A stretch of DNA of 26,055 nucleotides from a virus (taxonomy: Duplodnaviria > Caudoviricetes): the IMG/VR virus record IMGVR_UViG_3300020355_000011, positions 1-26,055 of that record, one strand, 5' to 3'. Shown here in pieces: positions 8,967-22,072 of this stretch. A program made the position numbers and the translations under genes. The notes beneath the pieces were generated by a model. That model had not been told where the DNA came from, searched no databases, and saw nothing but the letters and a program-made list of their open reading frames with translations. The number at the start of each line of letters is the position of its first letter. Position 1 is the stretch's first letter.

Positions 8967-8975
8967 ACTATAGCA
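8967..8975 (-). promoter_or_regulatory. Possible extended -10 element (TGCTATAGT)
   Basis: 8/9 identical to TGCTATACT at 10815-10823; no -35 visible; only 9 nt from the next ATG. Confidence 0.3.
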
Positions 8976-9013
8976 GAAGAAAAGGGTGGAGGTGGAGTTC
9001 CACCCTAATCTTC
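8975..9013 (-). terminator. Intrinsic terminator-like hairpin after the major capsid gene
   Basis: AGGGTGGA (9006-8999) pairs with TCCACCCT (8990-8983), 8-nt loop, followed by TTTCTTCT; outer GAAGA/TCTTC pair also possible. Confidence 0.7.
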
Positions 9014-9025
9014 AATGCTTTTTTA

Positions 9026-10144
9026 TTAACTTACTGCTTGAATTTTGCAGTGATATGAAGGAGGTCCGAACTCGAATCCCATCTCCATATAAACAGCTTT
9101 TCCAATTCTAGCGTTTGCATCTTGGTCAATATCACGAACAAACACAGTTCCAAATCCTGGGATATTGGTAAACACTGGGTTTATGTGTGCTAAGTCTAAG
9201 ATGAATGCAGTGTTATCAGGCATAATATCAGGGTCAATAATCATCATTCCGATTGAACCGAATGGTGTAACTATTGTATCAATATCAACACCTGCAATAT
9301 TTCTATCTCTAGGAATAATTGCTCCTGCAATATCAACTGTTCCTTTAACAAGTTCATTGTTAAGGTCTAGTAATTGTTTTGGAGTAACAGCTAACACAGG
9401 TTGATTCATTGGTGCATGGTTATCATACATTCTCTTTAACGCACCTGAAATAGTTGCGAAAGAAAGAACTTGTGTTGAACCAGAACCATCTCCGTTTGTG
9501 TCATTGTAGAAACAGTTACCGCCTAATGGGTTAACTGCTGCTGAGTTGCTAGCGTTCTTGCCGATTGTAATCCATACGTCAAGACCGTACATTTCTCTAG
9601 TTCCATCACCTGGTGTGGTATTAGCACCATCTGAGAAAGAACCGTTGAAGCAAAACCACTCAACTTCTCTTGCTATTTTTTCCATTGTTTTTTCCATTTG
9701 CAATGCAAATTCATCTGCCACTGGACTACCACCAAAAAATGCTAGTTTATCTGCTGCAGTTGTTGTTCCATCTCCATTAGATGAGTTAACAATATTTGCA
9801 GATAAGTCTAGAGGATTTTGGTTTCCGGTAGATGCTAAAGCGGTATATGTCATTTGTACACCCTTGTGAAAGATTTGTGTTACATAGGTATATGCAGCCC
9901 TGTCTCTTCCAAGAAATTCTGTAGGTGTAGAACCTTCTTGACCTTTAGTTGGCTCAGTGGAAATCTTAGCATTGTCTTCTACTTGGACTTGCCAATATGT
10001 AGAATTGATTGCTCTTCCACCATTTAAACCGCCAACTGCGGATAGTAAAGGTGTTCTTTGACCACCAACTTTAAACAATTCACCAGCGAAGTTATTAATG
10101 TTTTGTGCATAAATCGTATTATTTGTTAACGATATACTTGCCAT
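9026..10144 (-). CDS. Major capsid protein (SU10/DUF5309-like, HK97 fold)
   Basis: 372 aa; TPLLSAVG, VTQIFHKGVQMTYTA, EFALQMEKTMEKIAREVE, TREMYGL, IVTPFGSI; AGGAG SD; preceded by scaffold, followed by terminator. Confidence 0.85.
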   Translation of the reverse strand: MASISLTNNTIYAQNINNFAGELFKVGGQRTPLLSAVGGLNGGRAINSTYWQVQVEDNAKISTEPTKGQEGSTPTEFLGRDRAAYTYVTQIFHKGVQMTYTALASTGNQNPLDLSANIVNSSNGDGTTTAADKLAFFGGSPVADEFALQMEKTMEKIAREVEWFCFNGSFSDGANTTPGDGTREMYGLDVWITIGKNASNSAAVNPLGGNCFYNDTNGDGSGSTQVLSFATISGALKRMYDNHAPMNQPVLAVTPKQLLDLNNELVKGTVDIAGAIIPRDRNIAGVDIDTIVTPFGSIGMMIIDPDIMPDNTAFILDLAHINPVFTNIPGFGTVFVRDIDQDANARIGKAVYMEMGFEFGPPSYHCKIQAVS

Positions 10145-10163: not shown

Positions 10164-10649
10164 TTATCTTTTGTCTTGTTCATTAAGAGTGTCAATCATA
10201 CGCAGTTTTGCATTGATTGAATCTCTTGTACTTGTGTTGGAATCATTAATGAATTTGTTGAACTCTTGTGATATATCAACAGGTTCAGCATTTACACCAA
10301 GTTTATTTAGCTGTTCAACTCTTCCTTGAGCTTCAGTAACATTATCAGTAATTTTATCTTCAACAACAGGCTCAGCATTAATAGCATCACCAAATTCATT
10401 GTTAACAAAATCTTTGATATCAGTTACATTCATTTCTCCATCGTAAAGTTTTGTTACGGCTTTTCCAATACCTTTATCAGATTGTAAACCTAATGACTCT
10501 AATGCAGTATTCATGGCTTGTGCCTTAAATGCTTTATTCTCAGCTTTGAGTTTTTTGAACTCATCTCTAAGTTGTTTTATATTGTCGTTAGATTCTACAG
10601 CTTCTTCAATTGCATCTTCTGTAGCTTGGTCTAATTTATTTTCTTCCAT
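10164..10649 (-). CDS. Capsid scaffolding protein
   Basis: Acidic, coiled-coil (NIKQLRDEFKKLKAENK), directly before the capsid gene. Start reassigned from 10685 to ATG 10649 (161 aa) because GGAG lies 6 nt upstream. Confidence 0.75.
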   Translation of the reverse strand: MEENKLDQATEDAIEEAVESNDNIKQLRDEFKKLKAENKAFKAQAMNTALESLGLQSDKGIGKAVTKLYDGEMNVTDIKDFVNNEFGDAINAEPVVEDKITDNVTEAQGRVEQLNKLGVNAEPVDISQEFNKFINDSNTSTRDSINAKLRMIDTLNEQDKR

Positions 10650-10810
10650 TATTTTCTCCATTTTCTCTAGCATATTTAATCCCATATAACATAATCGCTA
10701 GGTAATTAAGGGGATTTCACAAGGATTTACGAATGTCAAACAACACACCTTGGCTGTGTCATCGCGTTTGCAGCCCTATATTTTGTGTGCCGAATCCTGC
10801 CAGGCACTAC
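10650..10810 (-). ncRNA. Candidate structured cis-regulatory leader RNA upstream of scaffold/capsid
   Basis: Only long non-coding stretch; GC-enriched; six complementary segment pairs of 4-6 bp, several crossing (see findings); flanked by promoter and SD. Confidence 0.5.
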
Positions 10811-10814
10811 ATCT

Positions 10815-10841
10815 AGTATAGCAGGTTTATTGTTCTGTCAA
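10815..10841 (-). promoter_or_regulatory. Sigma70/SigA-type promoter for the capsid operon
   Basis: TTGACA (10841-10836), 15-nt spacer (short), TATACT (10820-10815) with TGn extension; predicts a start near 10808-10810, where the first leader hairpin begins. Confidence 0.65.
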
Positions 10842-11912
10842 GCCAGTTACAGCACCTTGTCTATTTTGTCTAGCACCTGTTGCTACTGCACTAGCTGATT
10901 CTGCTTGTGCTGATAATGAACCTACTTGTTCCATAAAATCTGTATCAGGAGCTGCTCCAAACTCTGCAAACTCTAATGCTGTATATGTTTCATCAGGTCT
11001 ATTAAATCTTCTAGCTAATCTTGATGCTGTAATAGCTCTAGCTGTAGCTGTTTCAAACTCTCCAGCAGCTCTTTGTGCAGTTAAACCACTACCGATAAGT
11101 CTTTGTACAGCATCAAAGTCTATATCTTCTCCTGTCACTCTTTCGAATGTTGCACTAATTTGTGATACATTTAATCTTCTATTTAATATTTGTGCATTTA
11201 CTTCAGGGTCAATAGCTAAAGCAACAAGTGTTGATGCCTTAGGTTCTACAAACTCACCGAGTTCATTTGAATAATACTCTTGATATTGTCCTAAAATTTG
11301 TGATTTTTGCTCATCAGGAACAGCATCTATTGTTTGTTGCACTGCACTTAATCGCTGTCTCATTTCATCTGGTGAAACATTGTTAGCTAAAAGTTTTGGA
11401 AATACTGTATCAATATTTTCTTTTGCATAACCGCCTAAATTAAATTCATTAAAATGTACAATCACAGCTTCTTTATTTTGCAGATACTGTGCTTCTGTCA
11501 TTCTTAAAGAACCATCTGTTCTTTGAATACCTTCAAACATTTCACTATATTCAGGAGCTGAACGCATTGCAGCCAAAGCAAAAGTGTCTTTTCCAGACTT
11601 AATGTATCCATCTACATATGCTTTAATTAATTTTTCACCTCTTTGAGGGTCAAGTTTTGTAATGTAAGGTAGTAATACTTTTGCTTGCTCAACTGTAAAA
11701 TTAGCTGAAAATGTTTCTGATAAAGGTTTGTCTGCTTCTGCAGCAGTATTACCTTTAAAATTTACTCCCCCACCTGTAAAAGATGCTGCTTCTGCCTCTG
11801 CAAAATTAGTTGTATATCCATTCTCTTCTAAGTCTTGTATTAATTTTGTTTTACTCGTATCAATAGTATATCCCTCTAGAAAATCTTTTCTATAATAAGT
11901 TACTGTTGCCAC
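10827..11912 (-). CDS. Probable internal virion (ejection) protein
   Basis: 361 aa, helical, Ala/Gln-rich C-terminus; MRSAPEYSEMFEG...TEAQYL...NVSPDEMRQR; TAGTG overlap. Confidence 0.5.
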   Translation of the reverse strand: MATVTYYRKDFLEGYTIDTSKTKLIQDLEENGYTTNFAEAEAASFTGGGVNFKGNTAAEADKPLSETFSANFTVEQAKVLLPYITKLDPQRGEKLIKAYVDGYIKSGKDTFALAAMRSAPEYSEMFEGIQRTDGSLRMTEAQYLQNKEAVIVHFNEFNLGGYAKENIDTVFPKLLANNVSPDEMRQRLSAVQQTIDAVPDEQKSQILGQYQEYYSNELGEFVEPKASTLVALAIDPEVNAQILNRRLNVSQISATFERVTGEDIDFDAVQRLIGSGLTAQRAAGEFETATARAITASRLARRFNRPDETYTALEFAEFGAAPDTDFMEQVGSLSAQAESASAVATGARQNRQGAVTGLTEQ

Positions 11913-13989: not shown

Positions 13990-15443
13990 TATCTACCTGC
14001 ACTAAAAGCAGCAACAAGTCTTGCTGTTCCTTCTTTTCTAGCCTGGTCAACTTGATTTGATTCTATAAGTTCTCCATACGTAGAGAGTATGTATTTATTA
14101 AGTTCATATTCAAATGCATTACTTACATCTTCAGAACTCATAACTGATTGTATTTCATATTGTTTATCAGGCAAATTAAATTTCTTTCTTCTCAAGGCAT
14201 CTTCTTGAGCCATTCTTAATTGATTAGCATTGAGTCTATATGAATCACGAGCTTCTTTGTTAAGTTCTTTTATTTTATTATTTGCCCAATCCTGTATTGC
14301 ATATACAGATAAATCAGTATTAGGAAGTCCAACAGATGTAATTGCATTTTCTATTTGTTGGTTAAGCAGTCCTGGTTTTGGAATATAAACTATATCTGGT
14401 CCTGTAAATATAGGATTTGTGTCTGTAAATTTAATACTATCTAAACTATCTAAATAGAAATCTCTTACAAAACCTAAGAAAGCTGCATTATTTCCACCTG
14501 ATGCAATAGCAATATCTTCTAAATCATTTGTATCAATTCCAAATTCTGTTTTTGGATTCATGTAATAAAATGATTGTGCAACAGCTTTTTGTGTAGCTTC
14601 ATCATATCTACCCTCTGCAAAACTATTTGGTTCTAAAAATCCTGCTTGTACTAATGCAAGTTGAAAATCAATAACCCTTTCAGCAGGTAAATTTTCTAAA
14701 AATCCAACTTCTAAACCTTGATTATATAATGGTGTAAGATTTTGATTACCTGCTGAATCTCTGTATGTTTCTAAAGCAAATGGGTCATTTGATAAACCAT
14801 AATATCCTATATCACTTCCTTGTGTAAAACCTAATTCAAATTCATAAGCACCTGATAAAAGTTCTTCGTTGTTTGCAATCTGGTCTATTTCAGCAAAAGC
14901 ATTCATTAATTTATTTACATTGCCATCCTCTGTATATTGTTTATAAGCTGCATCTCTAAGCTCTTGTGGAGATAGTTTTTTTTCTTCTGCTTTTACTCTA
15001 GCTCTTGATGTTTCTGCAACTCTTTGAACAATATTTGAATATGCTACTTGAGATTCTTCAACACTATCTCCAGCAATTAAACCAGCAGCTTCTCTTTGTG
15101 CATCTATTTCATCAGGAGTTCTATCTTCTAATGCACCATCTGCAACACCTTGTTTAAAGCTATTTACACCCTCTGCTAAACCTTGACCCATCACGTAACC
15201 AAAGTATGCTTCTCCTGTCATTCCTAACATTTCAGGATTACCAAACTCTTCAAATATATCGTCTGCTAATTCATCAGGTAAACTATCAAAAAAATCTGCA
15301 ATTTTTTGACCAAGCAAAGAACCAATAAAAGATTCAGGGCTTTGTCCTAAATATGCAGGGTCAACAGAAGTAAATCCAGATGCTTTGGTATCTGACCAAG
15401 CTCTTCCTAATCTATAAAAAAGTCCTTTTTTCTTTTTATTCAT
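13989..15443 (-). CDS. Probable internal virion protein with peptidoglycan-binding-like domain
   Basis: 484 aa; RVIDFQLALVQAGFL...AEGRYDEATQKAV (about 14568-14679) matches the PG_binding_1 pattern VxxLQxxLxxxGY...DGxFGxxTxxAV. Confidence 0.55.
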   Translation of the reverse strand: MNKKKKGLFYRLGRAWSDTKASGFTSVDPAYLGQSPESFIGSLLGQKIADFFDSLPDELADDIFEEFGNPEMLGMTGEAYFGYVMGQGLAEGVNSFKQGVADGALEDRTPDEIDAQREAAGLIAGDSVEESQVAYSNIVQRVAETSRARVKAEEKKLSPQELRDAAYKQYTEDGNVNKLMNAFAEIDQIANNEELLSGAYEFELGFTQGSDIGYYGLSNDPFALETYRDSAGNQNLTPLYNQGLEVGFLENLPAERVIDFQLALVQAGFLEPNSFAEGRYDEATQKAVAQSFYYMNPKTEFGIDTNDLEDIAIASGGNNAAFLGFVRDFYLDSLDSIKFTDTNPIFTGPDIVYIPKPGLLNQQIENAITSVGLPNTDLSVYAIQDWANNKIKELNKEARDSYRLNANQLRMAQEDALRRKKFNLPDKQYEIQSVMSSEDVSNAFEYELNKYILSTYGELIESNQVDQARKEGTARLVAAFSAGR

Positions 15444-18400
15444 TAATACTCCATAGGTGTAAATACATCGGTAAACTCTTCTTCTACTTCAAACCTTAGT
15501 ATATCATCATAAACATAGTAGAAATCTGGAAACTGTGAAAATAGTTCTTGTGCTTTTCTTCTTAATACTTCTCTAAAATATGTGTATTCTTGTCTTTTAA
15601 GGGTTGCTCTAGGTCCATCTCTTCTTTGTATTTGTGCAAGAATACTATCTCTTATTTCTAAATATTGAACTAAACCTTGCATCGATGGTAATTCTTTAAG
15701 AGCTAATGATTCTCCACTAGGTAGTGTTACTGTTCTTTCTCCTTCTCTTTGAATCATATCGATAAGCTGTAGTCTTTTTGATTCAGCATCAATAGCTTTT
15801 GCAGTTGTAGATGTTTGTCCATAACCTGGATATTCTTGTCGTAGTGCCATTCTATAATCTGTAAGTATTTCGTATTTTCTTTCAGGAGTTAAATTATTGT
15901 GAGCGCCTGATTCAAATAACAATCTTCTTTGATATTCATAAGCTAATCTACCTTGTGCTTGTCTTACAGCAGTAACATACTCATCTTCAGATAAATCTAC
16001 TCTGTCTCTATCTGCAAATGAATCAGCCCAAGCTACAAAACTAAACTCATCAAGTGGATTATCTGGGAATAAATAATATCCAACATCTGGATATATTTTT
16101 AATATTTCTTCATTGTCTCTGCCAAACTTTACACCTTCATCTGTATAACTTCTTTTTTTAATTTCTTTTGATTTAGAAACTAATAATGCTGTTGGGTCTA
16201 ATCCAAACTGATTAACAAATTCTTTTGTAGCAAGAACTTGGTCTCCTCCATATTTTGAAAGTATTCTATAATATGCATCTGTAAGTATTGACATTCCATA
16301 AAAATGATGTTTAGGGTCATCACCTTTTGTTTGTAATGGGTCTACAAATAATCGTCCTCCTGGTGCAACTTCAATATCATATCTAATAACTGCACCTGTA
16401 GGAGCAGCAAACTGTATAAAAGTTCTTGCAGCAGTTAAAAACATAGCCGTCTTTTTAGCTTCTTCTAACATTCTTGCTTGTTTAGCTGGTGTAGTATCAT
16501 CATATAATCCTGTAGTAACAAACATCTTAATTACATCTTTGTAAGTATTTGCAAATCCTCTTTGCATATCAGGGTCTGATGCACCCATAGACATTGCTTT
16601 TTTTGCCCAAGATGGTATAAGTGCATTTGCATATGTAGCTGGACTTAATGCACTTTTTGTTTCTCTTCCATATGGAAAAAATACTTTGTCTATTAATTCT
16701 GTTTCAGGTAATATCTTTGATGCAGGTATACCAACTAAAGGTCCAAGACCAGGAGCAGGATTACCTACAATCATATTTAAAGAAGATACATAGCCTTTAA
16801 GATTTATTTTTGCATCTGGTGCAGCAAGCTCTTCTCCTGTTACAGGATTTTTTACTGTTCTTGAATCTCTATTACCATCAAACATCCAGTTTGTTAAAAA
16901 CTCTGAACCTGGAAAGAAAAACATTTCTTCTCCTGTCATAGCATCTGTATGAAAGAATCCTTCGTCATCATTATTTAAATCAGCTTTTCTTGCACCATCA
17001 ATACCTCGTGTAATCTTTCTTGTTGCAAGGAATTTTTTTTGATTTAATAATCTTGACCAAGTACCCATTATTTCTATATATACTTCTGCGAATGGAAATG
17101 CTAAACGTAGCATATCAGAAACAACATGTCTTCTGTTTAAATCATAAAGAAGTGATTGTGTTTCTGCTAATGCATATGCTTTTGCTGTATCGTCTAAAGC
17201 ATCTAAGTCAGCTAACCTAAGAAGTTTACCTTCATCTGCTGATACCTTACCTGTTGTATCTAGTGATTTTATAAATTTCTTTGGTAAGTTAGAAGCTTGT
17301 GCTTGTTGTTTAATCTGTTGTCTAAGTCCATCATCAAAATAAGCAATGTTAGTTTCTATAAATCTCCAATAGAATTGTCTAAATGCAGGAGAACGTGAAA
17401 GTCTATTTGTAGGTGCTGACATAACAATACTAAATAATCTTTCTATAGCAGCATCGTAAGAACTAACTCTTTCTCCATCCATATCAAATACAGATTTTTT
17501 CATCACGTGCATTGATTTATAAGGGTCTTTTTTAGCTAACCACTTTGTATATGCTTTTTTATTACCAATACTTGCTTTTCTTCCTATAGCTACAGTCTTA
17601 CCATCAATATCTACAAGTATTGCTTTATCATCTATAGCGTTTCTACCTTTAGATATATGCTCTAGTAATTCTGCATCTCCAGTTTCAATAAGTTCAAATT
17701 CTATTTCTGATTGTGGAGATTTTCTGACTCTTGTCATTCCCTCCATATCTTCAAAAACTACACGTGTACCATCTGGTTTTACTTCTGTAACTTTATACTT
17801 TCCACCTGTTTTATAATGAACTCTAGCTGCTACTGAGTCAATATAATCATCAGCCCATTTTCTATCGTTTAATATTTTTATTTTTTGATATTTACCTGCT
17901 TCATCAGAACCATAAGCTAAAGCTGTTCTCCAACTACTTAAGTCTCCATCTTTATTCCAAAATCTATCTTTTATATTTTGTAGCCCTGCTTTAACATCAT
18001 CAACACCACCTTTGAGTGTTGCTATTTCTGCAGCAATAGGGTCATCTACTAATTGAAATATTTCTGATACTGCAGCTCCGTGATATCCTTTTTCTCCTTT
18101 TTGAACCGATTTGAATGCAAAAGTTCTTTTAAGTTTATCACCATCTAAAATGCCATTATGTGACATAGACATACTTGCTTTATGATAAATACTGTCTGCT
18201 AATATTTCATTGTCTCGTATGCTAAACATACCTCTTTGTATTGTTCTATCTATATCAAGGTTTTCATATCCTTTTACTCTTCTTAAAACAGATTCTCTGT
18301 CTTTACCTAATATCCAAGCAAATGCTGACAATGGGTGTGTAAATACATTATCTAAATCTGCAGCCCACATTCTAACTTGTTCTTCACCAACAACTCTTGC

Positions 18401-21400
18401 TGTCCATGCACCTCTAAGAAGTATGAATGGTTTCCAAGCTCTATTCATATAGTTATCTCCTAACTTAGATAACCAACCTTGAACTAATGCATTAGCATCT
18501 GCATCATCAGCAGATAAATCAAATCTTTTTCTTGCAGTTTTAACAGTCATTTTTAACCAATCTGTTATACCTTTTTGGTCATTTGTTTGTAATTCAAATA
18601 ATTCAGCAACTGGTTTTGCTAACATTTCTTCAAATTCAGAAACTTCAAATTCTCTTCCATCTTCTAAATCAACAGTTCTTCTTGCAGAAGTTACACTTGG
18701 TCTCTTTGAACTAGGTATAATTCTTGTCCAAAATTCTCTTGCTGGTGAAAACACTCTTAAAAATAATCTTGCATCTGGTAAAGGTAATGAACCTGATGCT
18801 AAATACTCTGAAATTAAATGTGCTGTAGGTCTTCCAACAACTGATTCTAATTCATCAAAATTAGCACGTTTCATTAAAGTATTTGTAGCTGTTGTCAATA
18901 CATCATCTTCTGTTGTTATGTCAGAAAAATAATTAAGTATTTGGTTTGGAGATACTTTTGCATTTTTAAATACTTTAAATCCTGCTTTAGTATCAAAAGC
19001 ATCTTGTGTTTTTGTAAATAAAGTTTTTAGTACAGGTGTTATTTTTGACGCATCTCCTGTTCTAGGACCAATAATATTTACAGTTGGATATTTTTTAATG
19101 AGTTCATGTATTTCTTGAACAAATTTATTATCTATTCTTTGTGCAGTATCAACTATTACTAATGGTCTGTTACCTTGATACACGCCTTGCTCAGGTATTT
19201 TAGCTTGTGACCATTTACCCTTTCTTGCATAGTTTATTGCACCAGTAGTTCCTTTACCTGCTGGATTAGTAACAGAATCTATTATTGCAATAGTTATATC
19301 TGCATCATCAATATTTTTTTGACTTCTTGCAACAAAATATTTATTAGCTGGCATCTTTTCATTTATATTTTTAGAAGTTAATCTATTTCTTTCACGTTGT
19401 AATGCCTCTAATTTTTTGACAGTAGAGTCATCATTAATATCATTAAGACGTGCTTGTAATTGTGTCTCATGTTTTGCAAGAGTTTGTTTTTCAGTATTGA
19501 TTCTTTTTTGTAAATTTTTGTATGCTCTTTGATAACCAGGCATGTCAAAGCTATCATATTGTAATATTTTATTTGGACCTTCTTCTACTAAGTTTGTTGC
19601 GTATCTAAGTATTGACGCTTTAGATTCTAATTCTAATCTTGCACCAATAGATAATTCAGGAGCATCTCCATTCTTTATTCTTACATCTTCAGCATCTAAT
19701 GCTTTTCTTGCAATGTAACCAGCTTGTAATTTATTTTGTATTTTTAAATCATCTCTAACTGGAGATAACTCTAATTCCTTATACGCTTTTTCTAATCCTT
19801 TTAATCTTGCTTTATCCTCAGCAACTTTTTGTTTTAATCTATTGTATGTTACAGTTGTAGCTCCTACTCTTTTATCTTTGAATATTGCTTCATTTTCAGT
19901 TCTTTTTATTGTTTCATCAATAAATCCAACTTGTCTTGCTGCATCATCTGTCAATCCATAATCTATTAGCTCTGCTTCGTGAAGCCCATAACTACCTGTT
20001 TTAGTTTGTGCAGAGTCTCCAAAACCAGGAGTTCCTGTACCCCCTGTTTCTATATCAAGTTCTTTTGCAACTCTTAATGCTTGTATTTCTGTACCTCTAC
20101 CACCATTTGATATAACTTTTGCAGGTAAGATTTCTGCCTCTGCTAAATCTGTTGGTACTCTTTGTGCTGAATCAACTTTAGATAAAAAGTCATCTTTTAT
20201 ATCTTGTATGGTTCTTAATCTTCCAGACTTTTTAAAATTAGAGTTACTTATTATTTCATCAATAATATCTAAGGTTTGTTTCATGTTAAAAGAAACATTA
20301 TCTAAATTATTTCTACCTTTATCTAATATGCTAATTTTTTGTAAGTTCCACGCTTCTTCGCCATATGCACCATAAAAATATTTATTAGCTTCATCGACAC
20401 TAGCAACTAATTTACCAACTTGATTTACTACACCTCTAGGAATATTTACAGCTTCAAATTTATCCATAATGTGTCTAAGGACACCATTTTCACCACCATA
20501 AATATCTAACATCATATTTAATTTTTGTAGTGATGCAGGACTTCCATCAAGAGCTTGTATAACTTCATCATCCATAGCGTCAACTATTCTATCTAATGTG
20601 CTTTTTGCAATATCATCATCAACTTTTGCAAACTTCATAAAATCTTTTAGTTCAAAAAATGTTCTATTCAAATCATCTGTTTGTATTCTTGGTGCAGGAA
20701 ATACATTAAACAATCTTTCAAAAATACTATTTTTGCTATTTAACTTCATTGCAGTTTTAAATCCAACTGCTGAGACTTTATCACCATATACAAATTTTGC
20801 TGCAGCTTTTGACAATGTCCCATTAAATAATAATGATGTAGGGTCAAGCCTTTCCATAGCATCAGCAGTAATGTCTTCAGCAGCATTAACAAGAATATTT
20901 TTTATTGCTTGTTTGTCTTTAGTATCTCTTAATCTCCTATAAAGTTTTGCTCCACCTGCTGTTCTTGCTATTGTTTTATCTGAGATTTTTTTACCTTGTC
21001 CACCTAATAATATTTGTACTTCATCGTACGTATCTGCTTGAGCAAACAAATCTGCAATATCATCACCAGCTTTTGTTTCAAAATAAAACTCTCTAGCTTT
21101 TGGTATCTTAACTGTTTTCCTTACAACACTATCTATTAATCCACTTGCTTTTTTAGTTTCATTTAAATTAAAAGATTTTTTTATTGCACCTGCTTTTGCT
21201 AATGCACCACCAGCATAAGTTGCAGGGTCAGTAAGCACTGTATAAGCTCCATCAATAATTCCTGATAATAAATTAAAAGATTTTGTTCCTGGTTCAAATA
21301 CTTCAACAGCAGCTACACGACCAGGAGATAATTTTACAGTACCCTTTCTACCTCTATAAGTACCTGCATGACCTTCTCTTGTATTCATTTCTAATTGTGT

Positions 21401-22072
21401 AATTGGTTTACCATAATATTCTTGTATGATTTGTTTTACTTCATCAGGATTTGCACCTCTACCAACTAACTCTTTATATACTTCTGTATTTTCTGCAACT
21501 GTAGAATTACCAAAATATCCTTGACCTAAGTTTACTTTTCTTCCTGCACGTAATTCTTGGAAGGCTCTTGTAGCAACTGTAGGTCCTTGGTCTTTTAAAG
21601 ATTGTACAAACTCATTTCTACCATTAGGGTCAAGTAATGGTACTAATGTGCCTACACCTGTAAAAGCAAGTAACGGATTCATTTTTCTTGCAGAATAATA
21701 TTTCATACCTGCTTGTCCATATTTTTTTACAAACTGTGATGCAGATTCCATTCCAACTACTGCACCTCTTATAGCACCTCTTCCTGCAGCCTTAACACCT
21801 TCCCACCATGATGTTTCTTTTTCTAAAAATCTTTCTACAATACTTGTAAATTCTGGTGAGTCTTTTGTTAATCCCATTAATGCACCTGCAACCTGCACGT
21901 CTTTTGGTAAAAAACCATAAGTCTTAGATATCTCAGACATGTTGTAAGGTATTGATGGGTTGTTAGCAAAAAAATTATCTATTTGTTGTGCTTGTCCTAA
22001 TAACTCATCTCTGTATAAATCATCCTGGTCTTCTTGCCAGGGTGCTACCCAGTTCCACCTAAAAGCTGTCAT
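15443..22072 (-). CDS. Giant internal virion / DNA-ejection protein with an embedded SLOG (cpYpsA/MoCo-carrier-like) domain
   Basis: 2209 aa, mostly helical, no tape-measure periodicity noticed; SLOG-like motifs at aa ~652-700 and ~912-1015. Confidence 0.6.
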   Translation of the reverse strand: MTAFRWNWVAPWQEDQDDLYRDELLGQAQQIDNFFANNPSIPYNMSEISKTYGFLPKDVQVAGALMGLTKDSPEFTSIVERFLEKETSWWEGVKAAGRGAIRGAVVGMESASQFVKKYGQAGMKYYSARKMNPLLAFTGVGTLVPLLDPNGRNEFVQSLKDQGPTVATRAFQELRAGRKVNLGQGYFGNSTVAENTEVYKELVGRGANPDEVKQIIQEYYGKPITQLEMNTREGHAGTYRGRKGTVKLSPGRVAAVEVFEPGTKSFNLLSGIIDGAYTVLTDPATYAGGALAKAGAIKKSFNLNETKKASGLIDSVVRKTVKIPKAREFYFETKAGDDIADLFAQADTYDEVQILLGGQGKKISDKTIARTAGGAKLYRRLRDTKDKQAIKNILVNAAEDITADAMERLDPTSLLFNGTLSKAAAKFVYGDKVSAVGFKTAMKLNSKNSIFERLFNVFPAPRIQTDDLNRTFFELKDFMKFAKVDDDIAKSTLDRIVDAMDDEVIQALDGSPASLQKLNMMLDIYGGENGVLRHIMDKFEAVNIPRGVVNQVGKLVASVDEANKYFYGAYGEEAWNLQKISILDKGRNNLDNVSFNMKQTLDIIDEIISNSNFKKSGRLRTIQDIKDDFLSKVDSAQRVPTDLAEAEILPAKVISNGGRGTEIQALRVAKELDIETGGTGTPGFGDSAQTKTGSYGLHEAELIDYGLTDDAARQVGFIDETIKRTENEAIFKDKRVGATTVTYNRLKQKVAEDKARLKGLEKAYKELELSPVRDDLKIQNKLQAGYIARKALDAEDVRIKNGDAPELSIGARLELESKASILRYATNLVEEGPNKILQYDSFDMPGYQRAYKNLQKRINTEKQTLAKHETQLQARLNDINDDSTVKKLEALQRERNRLTSKNINEKMPANKYFVARSQKNIDDADITIAIIDSVTNPAGKGTTGAINYARKGKWSQAKIPEQGVYQGNRPLVIVDTAQRIDNKFVQEIHELIKKYPTVNIIGPRTGDASKITPVLKTLFTKTQDAFDTKAGFKVFKNAKVSPNQILNYFSDITTEDDVLTTATNTLMKRANFDELESVVGRPTAHLISEYLASGSLPLPDARLFLRVFSPAREFWTRIIPSSKRPSVTSARRTVDLEDGREFEVSEFEEMLAKPVAELFELQTNDQKGITDWLKMTVKTARKRFDLSADDADANALVQGWLSKLGDNYMNRAWKPFILLRGAWTARVVGEEQVRMWAADLDNVFTHPLSAFAWILGKDRESVLRRVKGYENLDIDRTIQRGMFSIRDNEILADSIYHKASMSMSHNGILDGDKLKRTFAFKSVQKGEKGYHGAAVSEIFQLVDDPIAAEIATLKGGVDDVKAGLQNIKDRFWNKDGDLSSWRTALAYGSDEAGKYQKIKILNDRKWADDYIDSVAARVHYKTGGKYKVTEVKPDGTRVVFEDMEGMTRVRKSPQSEIEFELIETGDAELLEHISKGRNAIDDKAILVDIDGKTVAIGRKASIGNKKAYTKWLAKKDPYKSMHVMKKSVFDMDGERVSSYDAAIERLFSIVMSAPTNRLSRSPAFRQFYWRFIETNIAYFDDGLRQQIKQQAQASNLPKKFIKSLDTTGKVSADEGKLLRLADLDALDDTAKAYALAETQSLLYDLNRRHVVSDMLRLAFPFAEVYIEIMGTWSRLLNQKKFLATRKITRGIDGARKADLNNDDEGFFHTDAMTGEEMFFFPGSEFLTNWMFDGNRDSRTVKNPVTGEELAAPDAKINLKGYVSSLNMIVGNPAPGLGPLVGIPASKILPETELIDKVFFPYGRETKSALSPATYANALIPSWAKKAMSMGASDPDMQRGFANTYKDVIKMFVTTGLYDDTTPAKQARMLEEAKKTAMFLTAARTFIQFAAPTGAVIRYDIEVAPGGRLFVDPLQTKGDDPKHHFYGMSILTDAYYRILSKYGGDQVLATKEFVNQFGLDPTALLVSKSKEIKKRSYTDEGVKFGRDNEEILKIYPDVGYYLFPDNPLDEFSFVAWADSFADRDRVDLSEDEYVTAVRQAQGRLAYEYQRRLLFESGAHNNLTPERKYEILTDYRMALRQEYPGYGQTSTTAKAIDAESKRLQLIDMIQREGERTVTLPSGESLALKELPSMQGLVQYLEIRDSILAQIQRRDGPRATLKRQEYTYFREVLRRKAQELFSQFPDFYYVYDDILRFEVEEEFTDVFTPMEY

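Follow-up and report, generated by a model that had tools for sequence, protein, structure and literature searches.

Pseudoknotted leaders are already known from phages, and a serial arrangement of pseudoknots is known from eukaryotic viruses, in that the upstream pseudoknot domain of the tobamovirus 3' UTR consists of three small H-type pseudoknots in series. For phage P22 we know of no pseudoknot array. The N-terminus of the P22 scaffold protein has been implicated in translational autoregulation (bioRxiv 10.1101/2022.12.13.520362). The 5' leader of gene 32 in phages T4, T2 and RB69 carries an H-type pseudoknot through which, in T4, gp32 acts as a repressor; as that source describes it, a single knot lies about 67 nt upstream, followed by a long unstructured A+U tract, at a gene for a ssDNA-binding protein, and among T4 mRNAs those of gene 32 are noted as the most stable (PMC3014915). 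Candidate cis-regulatory RNAs are likewise described before GP20 genes (GP20-a, GP20-b and six further candidates, directly upstream of the gene) and before capsid genes in a screen of IMG/VR, the collection in which the present contigs lie (PMC10690425). Knots of this kind also affect mRNA decay. The RNase E of E. coli begins its scanning at a 5' monophosphate; H-type pseudoknots impede it in proportion to their coaxial base pairs, stem-loops are bypassed and the composition of the obstacle is reported to matter little. The knots in question, of eukaryotic and viral origin and with 8–15 coaxial pairs, protect downstream sites when placed in the 5' UTR of engineered E. coli reporters (PMC9943677).

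The leader described here lies in a 26,055-nt virus record (the window), whose minus strand carries a virion module that includes the terminase large subunit. It shares with the gene 32 operator the presence of H-type pseudoknots in a phage 5' leader, but has three of them, reaching up to the ribosome site, in front of head genes and with a repeated capped module. With P22 it shares a possible post-transcriptional control of the scaffold gene. As in the RNase E obstacles, the knots would form coaxial stacks, predicted at about 9, 13 and 9–13 base pairs in knots 1, 2 and 3; here, however, they would be of natural origin, arranged in series, and belong to a phage whose host is probably actinobacterial. 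The tobamovirus domain has three tandem H-type knots as well, but in the 3' UTR of a eukaryotic RNA virus, whereas this array belongs to the 5' leader of a tailed DNA phage and has no Rfam match. GP20 is itself a scaffold-like protein. The motifs found before it differ from this leader in that the downstream protein here lacks a significant Pfam match; GP20-a (RF02991) and GP20-b (RF03003) match neither the window nor the leaders of the eight relative loci scanned.

Rfam yields no match at gathering score in the window and none up to an E value of 10 at 10600–10900; in eight relative loci (leader types A, B, C, D and E, defined below) it yields none in the leaders and five weak matches outside them, far below gathering score. 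The literature on phage leader RNAs that was consulted gives no description of this RNA, and a prior listing is possible in the alignments of PMC10690425 or PMC5737381. An initial annotation of this DNA, made from the single sequence, had proposed a cis-acting leader with several pseudoknots ahead of the scaffold and capsid genes and outside any known family; covariation and the empty Rfam scans bear this out. What appears to be new is a serial array built from a double-capped module.

The non-coding gap and its neighbouring genes

The leader had been singled out as the only long non-coding stretch, and the interval 10650–10826 (177 nt) is indeed the sole gap of more than 70 nt among the minus-strand genes as read here, the next being 68 nt. 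Its description as GC-enriched holds for the 5' half (48% at 10720–10810) and fails for the remainder (31% at 10650–10720, against 34% for the whole window). The features downstream of the gap are as follows.

10647..10659, minus strand: Shine-Dalgarno sequence GGAG (10659-10656) and likely start codon (10649-10647), from which the relatives' proteins align
10164..10649, minus strand: 161-aa scaffold-like protein, named by position and predicted shape, without a family match
9026..10144, minus strand: major capsid protein (phrog_1328, major head protein, E 6.8e-24; PF17236 SU10_MCP, E 1.3e-41)
8975..9006, minus strand: terminator-like hairpin 3' of the capsid gene, supported by its position alone

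A longer open reading frame begins at 10685, with a start that is not conserved among relatives. The 161-aa protein matches phrog_7813, a family of unknown function, and no Pfam family above cut-off (best E 0.013); its model is all-helical and of low confidence (pTM 0.26), and the best Z in a fold comparison is 4.5. Mycobacterium phage Bernal13 has a distantly homologous capsid, and its gene at the matching position is annotated as a scaffolding protein. The term scaffold-like is used here on the basis of the position upstream of the capsid gene, the low-confidence helical model and the Bernal13 annotation. Leader, scaffold-like gene and capsid gene are predicted to form a 1.8-kb transcript ending at the 8975–9006 hairpin, a kind of site of which there are three in 5 kb against 2.1 in shuffled sequence. 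Elsewhere in the window, four adjacent open reading frames at 19–2816 (229–253 aa), alike by eye and one of them with a weak DUF6065 match (E 0.007), are possibly a tandem array of paralogues, and the 2,209-aa product of the open reading frame at 15443–22072, with a weak internal cpYpsA (SLOG) match at residues 909–1020 (E 0.006), is likely an injected virion protein. ARAGORN reports no genes in the window.

A leader RNA predicted to form three serial pseudoknots

Taken singly, the window leader has 34, 15 and 2 Watson–Crick helices of at least 4, 5 and 6 bp, against 34.8, 9.0 and 2.1 in 300 dinucleotide shuffles; these counts are attained by 56%, 4% and 59% of the shuffles, and the z-score of the folding MFE is 0.86. 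The number of helices is thus near chance, as the initial annotation had itself allowed, and it is the homologues that have to decide. Relative loci were gathered by capsid protein, by scaffold alignments and by DNA pattern, the protein searches covering the best 80 matches each. Leaders were obtained from 76 of the first 80 loci: 34 resemble that of the window (type A), 38 belong to type B and 4 are others; further loci gave types C, D, E and F, and the still unclassified leaders from protein searches that were inspected could all be assigned by eye to one of these six types. The distinct leaders analysed number 80 for type A, 34 for type B (31 aligned), 10 for C, 3 for D, 48 for E and 1 for F. 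Type A leaders are 58–100% identical to the window leader (median 79%), and they were excised with patterns that fix some bases, so that the invariance in pseudoknot 3 and at two cap bases is partly imposed. The leader RNA is predicted from these sequences to fold into three H-type pseudoknots in series.

10770..10807, minus strand: pseudoknot 1, with stem GUGCC (10807-10803)/GGCAC (10791-10787) and loop helix GCAG (10800-10797)/CUGC (10773-10770)
10718..10764, minus strand: pseudoknot 2, the double-capped module, with stem GAUGACAC (10763-10756)/GUGUUGUU (10746-10739) and cap C10764...G10737
CAAGG (10752-10748)/CCUUG (10724-10720), minus strand: loop helix of pseudoknot 2, with cap C10753...G10718
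10665..10714, minus strand: pseudoknot 3, with outer stem UCCC (10714-10711)/GGGA (10683-10680) and inner stem UAAU (10708-10705)/AUUA (10695-10692)
CUAGC (10701-10697)/GCUAG (10671-10667), minus strand: loop helix of pseudoknot 3, with cap C10702...G10665

Over the 38 pairs and 80 leaders, 97.6% of 3,021 cells are paired and 22 of the 38 pairs change on both sides; neither value is attained in any of 500 shuffles. The three-knot fold has a covariation score of 0.341, whereas shuffles score 0.159; slid partners, which are 35–42% paired, do not exceed 0.087. Within paired cells G-U outnumbers A-C by 131 to 19, an excess that identifies the folded molecule as the minus-strand RNA. A tree-aware scan, in which all 11,935 pairs of the unedited alignment were put to a product-corrected G-test against 60 tree-based null alignments, returns six type A pairs at E < 0.05, namely three of the pseudoknot 1 loop helix, one of the pseudoknot 2 stem and two cross terms of linked change; pair 10800-10770, in the pseudoknot 1 loop helix, is the top covarying among all 11,935.

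The stem of pseudoknot 1, a hairpin already present in the initial annotation, is paired in 384 of 385 cells, with 3.4 double events on the tree. Its loop helix (307 of 320 cells, 6.8 double events) occurs in relatives as ACGA/UCGU, CCAG/CUGG and GUGA/UCAC, and C10792 may pair with either G10801 or G10776, both alternatives being invariant. In pseudoknot 2 the stem is paired in 612 of 637 cells with 19.4 double events, the loop helix in 390 of 400 with one, and the two caps are found in 76 and 80 of the 80 leaders. The outer stem of pseudoknot 3 (295 of 320 cells, 3 double events) is the part that survives of an AAUCCC/GGGAUU helix proposed earlier; the inner stem is paired in 320 of 320 cells (0.6 double events), and the loop helix, also proposed earlier, in 400 of 400 (2 double events), with CUGGC/GCCAG and CAAGC/GCUUG as variants. 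The case for the loop helices of knots 2 and 3 is the weaker one, consisting of near-complete pairing with only one or two independent compensations each.

In the window the fold extends from about 7 nt past the -10 box to 16 nt ahead of the scaffold-like AUG, and across type A the last cap G lies 15–22 nt before the AUG (16 nt in 43 of 80 leaders). The linkers are short (2–11 nt) and A/U-rich, and unpaired leader positions are 80% A+U. Conservation is not confined to the helices: in the type A alignment 61 columns reach 95% conservation or more, among them unpaired ones and the C...N-G caps.

Helices not upheld by the relatives

The seven complementary pairs of the initial annotation all exist in the window, but four of them are not upheld by the relatives. 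Pairing falls to 322 of 421 cells (76%) for AGGAUU/AAUCCU, 208 of 320 (65%) for GGCU/AGCC, 231 of 316 (73%) for CAAAC/GUUUG and 269 of 320 (84%) for ACAC/GUGU in the register then proposed; none shows a compensatory event, and each has 6–24 breaking changes on the tree of the 80-sequence alignment. Two of the three pseudoknot pairings claimed were consequently misplaced, the loops pairing instead with the next downstream segment (GCAG/CUGC and CAAGG/CCUUG), and the third stands. Already in the first MAFFT alignment (59 sequences) the earlier map was 84.6% paired with a covariation score of 0.148, and the revised map 97.3% with 0.264.

Two copies each of GGAUU and AAUCC had been taken to allow an exchange of partners. 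Of the two exchange pairings, one is paired in 70% and the other in 75% of cells, neither with a double change. GGAUU is duplicated in 9 of the 80 leaders and AAUCC in 16, and both words of AGGAUU/AAUCCU are found together in 8 of 80. As the exchange pairs lack compensation and the duplicated words are mostly absent from relatives, the switch is rejected as a peculiarity of this one sequence. A long-range UAGG/CCUA pairing was discarded on similar grounds, being paired in 313 of 320 cells, broken wherever either side changes (7 of 320) and never compensated, and no conserved alternative fold was found across the 80 type A leaders. For a regulatory switch in the broader sense there remain two hints, namely that the Shine-Dalgarno sequence can pair with C-rich leader strands in a folding model blind to pseudoknots, and that the last knot of type B (L026:1950-1999) looks, by eye, like the preQ1-I aptamer. 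The preQ1-I riboswitch has no Rfam match in the window or in the relative loci scanned, two type B loci and a third among them, and the genes downstream are head genes, structural and not metabolic or related to queuosine. HDV-like ribozymes have a nested pseudoknot topology, whereas the covarying helices here form serial H-type knots rather than a nested core; no Rfam model of a self-cleaving ribozyme (HDV-like, twister, pistol) matches. The ligand sensor and the ribozyme of the initial annotation are thus left without support, and we regard a riboswitch, a ribozyme or a partner-exchange switch as a very remote prospect.

Other leader types and a recurrent capped module

Related phages carry five other leader types, which have three or four pseudoknots of different sequence. 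For type B the tree-aware scan gives five pairs at E < 0.05, every one of them a predicted pair, and the third knot is drawn from the capped-module descriptor presented below. In the last knot of one type B leader (L026:1950-1999), a loop C has an internal G as candidate partner at the position that the ligand takes in the preQ1-I riboswitch. Four knots make up type E, which is 99.1% paired and changes on both sides at 17 of 47 pairs; the tree-aware scan of this type returns no significant predicted pair (best E 0.4–1.1), its sole pair at E 0.02 being the non-canonical 52-63. Type C is fully paired in its 10 sequences, with few changes, and the scan of these 10 returns no significant predicted pair. 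The type A model detects all of five type C leaders (E 9e-9 to 2e-4) and, weakly, one of six of type E, but none of the B, D and F leaders tried and neither Bernal13 nor the Propionibacterium phage B22.

A common pattern marks the inner knots in all types aligned, in which every helix strand is directly preceded by a C and its partner strand is followed, after one intervening base, by a G. C and G are invariant at 12 of the 14 cap positions in four alignments, and the other two are kept in 76 of 80 and 45 of 48 leaders. The base between partner strand and cap G varies at 10 of the 14 positions, and in five type A rows this bulge is of two bases. The caps never covary; we infer that they are base pairs. 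An alignment-free descriptor of the double cap, composed after the leaders had been seen, finds two modules in every type B (34 of 34), C (10 of 10) and E (48 of 48) leader and one or more in 65 of the 80 leaders of type A, 2 of 3 of type D and the single type F leader, against 0.00–0.08 per shuffled leader. On the window itself it gives one match on the minus strand, at knot 2, and six on the plus strand, which are background. In Bernal13 and B22 it gives no match ahead of the gene that occupies the place of the scaffold. In B22 a 201-nt gap (L549:1618-1818) precedes the gene that comes before the capsid gene, without a capped module or a type A match. The first-knot pattern of types C and E has a scaffold homologue downstream in 68 of 82 distinct matches, and the 9 matches that lack a partner strand and a type also lack a scaffold homologue.

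A variable bulge between a fixed C and a fixed G is a typical pattern of protein-binding sites. The leader could accordingly be read as a translational operator of the head proteins, to whose capped modules unassembled scaffold or capsid protein would bind cooperatively, the complex on the last knot blocking 30S entry and synthesis being matched to assembly. Besides the bulge, this reading draws on the recurrence of the double-capped module across leader types (two per B, C and E leader), on the last knot, whose end is 10–22 nt from the AUG in each of the four types with good sampling and which in type E touches the ribosome site, the cap G being the first Shine-Dalgarno base in 48 of 48 leaders, and on the analogies of the P22 scaffold (bioRxiv 10.1101/2022.12.13.520362) and T4 gp32 (PMC3014915). 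Leader type also fits the scaffold tree, with 3 changes over 67 loci (the minimum), better than the capsid tree, with 7, under tree settings that differed between genes. The gene upstream of the leader, used as a control, follows leader type about as well (4 changes, and 3 for its last 90 residues), so the co-segregation with scaffold reflects linkage and was withdrawn as evidence of autoregulation. The scaffolds of different leader types share, moreover, only 22–35% identity, with an acidic N-terminus, and yet the module is kept. In the low-confidence model of the window's scaffold-like protein no RNA-binding fold can be recognised. Translational repression by head proteins is the main rival of the reading preferred below, a serious contender but less likely than not. 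The capsid gene appears, from these trees, to recombine freely among lineages that keep leader, scaffold and upstream gene together, which would mean that one capsid family works with scaffolds of only about 25–35% identity.

A more specific and rather improbable version sees in the double-capped pseudoknot (C-stem1-loop-C-stem2...stem1'-N-G...stem2'-N-G) a pseudo-two-fold block that would dock head subunits on their own mRNA leader, count free subunits, shut off translation and possibly nucleate the procapsid.

Promoter and RNA libraries

Two promoter-like elements lie upstream of the leader.

10836..10841, minus strand: -35-like hexamer TTGACA, recognised by sequence, within the last codons of the upstream gene
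10815..10823, minus strand: extended -10 box TG-c-TATACT, recognised by sequence, with a 15-nt spacer from TTGACA

The consensus promoter of the initial annotation is present as far as TTGACA and TATACT are concerned, but it is of the extended -10 type with a 15-nt spacer and was not listed by a consensus scan for spacers of 16–18 nt. A hexamer starting with TTG is found 15 nt ahead of the -10 box in 51 of 61 matches among the 76 relative loci, usually with the TG extension; such a spacer is unusual for a promoter of the sigma-70 type and possibly needs a phage or host activator. Transcription is predicted to start near 10808–10810, and 64 of the 80 type A leaders have the stem of pseudoknot 1 beginning 7 nt past the -10 box. 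The -10 box and the predicted start are overlapped by an imperfect 12-bp palindrome, ACTA-n-AT-n-TAGT at 10806-10817, the sole copy in the window. Among relatives, 28 of 80 loci of type A and 11 of 34 of type B have perfect palindromes of at least 12 bp close to the promoter (e.g. L011, L026 and L539), and the palindrome over the -10 box is a possible operator.

Two metatranscriptome runs of one marine study contain single contigs that extend, without differences, from the interior of the leader to past the start codon (10551-10785 and 10558-10785). They place the leader in RNA libraries, which is a statement about presence and not about transcription, strand or start. Contigs of four runs, three of them from one study and the runs having been found by way of this region, do not cover 10793 to about 11010; as contigs carry no start or strand, this gap is not taken to place the start site. 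The contigs across the start codon bear on a further proposal, in which the loops pair between molecules by domain swap and a processed leader builds rings or cages, like prohead RNA or manA RNA, for head assembly or packaging. Covariation is blind to whether pairing is intra- or intermolecular, and natural RNAs shorter than 200 nt are reported to form cages and swapped oligomers (bioRxiv 10.64898/2026.07.01.735769). Against it, no terminator-like site lies between leader and open reading frame, single RNA-run contigs cross the start codon (though contigs do not prove one transcript), and linkers of 7–13 nt suit intramolecular H-type knots. We give such assembly hardly any weight.

Host and ribonucleases

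The capsid is related, at 24–29% identity, to those of 24 GenBank phage records, all but two of which are Mycobacterium, Propionibacterium or Bifidobacterium phages. The sole record in genome contigs with a close capsid is an Actinomycetota MAG, from an order whose genomes are about 1 Mb and in which the capsid is present in 1 of 65 genomes; mis-binning of phage contigs is possible. The order of this MAG would resemble Ca. Actinomarinales, as that group is described in PMC7771536, and is tentatively taken as the host on the strength of this one metagenomic bin. Two phage contigs of this family, C30 and C36 (L550 and L551), lie in the same MAG (G001); one bears a leader of type A and the other a leader of type E, which suggests, if the bin is right, that the two types share a host.

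Of 31 genomes from the candidate host order, 28 score above cut-off for RNase E/G. Among 61 of its genomes, which are incomplete, only one has a strong match to RNase J (TIGR00649), itself short of the cut-off, and this streamlined order has apparently lost the enzyme; an xrRNA-like roadblock to RNase J lost weight as a candidate on that account. In Mycolicibacterium smegmatis, RNase E is reported to govern most mRNA decay and to cut before single-stranded C (PMC10641625). The C content of unpaired leader positions is 6%, against 14% on the minus strand of the window, and this poverty offers weak support because the loops are A/U-rich anyway.

A proposed constitutive stabiliser

The explanation preferred here, to which we would assign a little less than an even chance, is that the leader is a non-switching stabiliser which would hinder RNase E on its way into the capsid mRNA and keep the Shine-Dalgarno sequence free. 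The data establish the conservation, the pattern of pairing, the strand, the position and the repetition of the capped module; the start of transcription, the host, the pairing of the caps and the function are inferred from them. Transcription from the dedicated extended -10 promoter would begin a few bases ahead of pseudoknot 1, and the three knots would fold successively, leaving only A/U-rich linkers of 3–8 nt. Each knot, with its 9–13 coaxial base pairs, would obstruct 5'-end-dependent RNase E; the last would finish just upstream of the ribosome site and leave it open, while C-rich strands able to pair with the Shine-Dalgarno sequence would be tied up in the knots. The outcome would be a long-lived and well-translated mRNA for the two most abundant head proteins.

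Several observations accord with this proposal. The natural leaders are built of knots and not of hairpins, in agreement with the RNase E scanning rule, and the five other types keep serial knots with different sequence, which fits a function set by shape. The lack of a conserved alternative fold, of a metabolic gene and of a ribozyme match argues for a static structure. The tentative host order mostly has RNase E/G and rarely RNase J. Withholding the knot strands from other pairings lifts the predicted unpaired probability of the Shine-Dalgarno sequence in the window to 0.72, from 0.29 otherwise, and its mean over the 80 leaders from 0.34 to 0.59; accessibility exceeds 0.8 with knots formed in only 8 of 80, under a folding model that cannot score pseudoknots. 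On the other side, RNase E scanning has been shown in E. coli, and a test in actinobacteria was not found in the literature. The high conservation, which includes unpaired columns and caps, sits badly with an obstacle whose composition is indifferent, and a protein site would explain it as easily as base triples. The layout of type E, in which the cap G coincides with the first Shine-Dalgarno base, suits repression and counts against a stabiliser.

The accessibility of the ribosome site also bears on a role as translation enhancer or standby site, in which the knots and A/U-rich loops would recruit S1 and 30S to the scaffold start. In E. coli tisB mRNA a 5' pseudoknot is reported to be required for S1 and 30S binding, and many pseudoknots to bind S1 tightly (PMC7708055), and the 80% A+U of the unpaired leader positions would suit such recruitment. 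A standby site matters, however, for a sequestered ribosome site, and here the site is predicted to be mostly open with the knots formed; the retention of three or four knots would also be left unexplained. We regard such recruitment as decidedly improbable; it is compatible with the stabiliser and may act jointly with it.

Significance

The leader belongs to an uncatalogued and well-covarying RNA family of abundant marine phages, built on a compact and recurrent pseudoknot module that is open to structure determination and direct mutagenesis. If it acts as an operator of the head proteins, the old question of how phages couple the synthesis of scaffold to the assembly of heads would gain a concrete RNA target. 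Should it be a stabiliser, nature would have provided an array of roadblocks against RNase E scanning, an effect demonstrated until now mainly in engineered reporters and in a riboswitch, and with it a ready-made part for stabilising bacterial mRNA.
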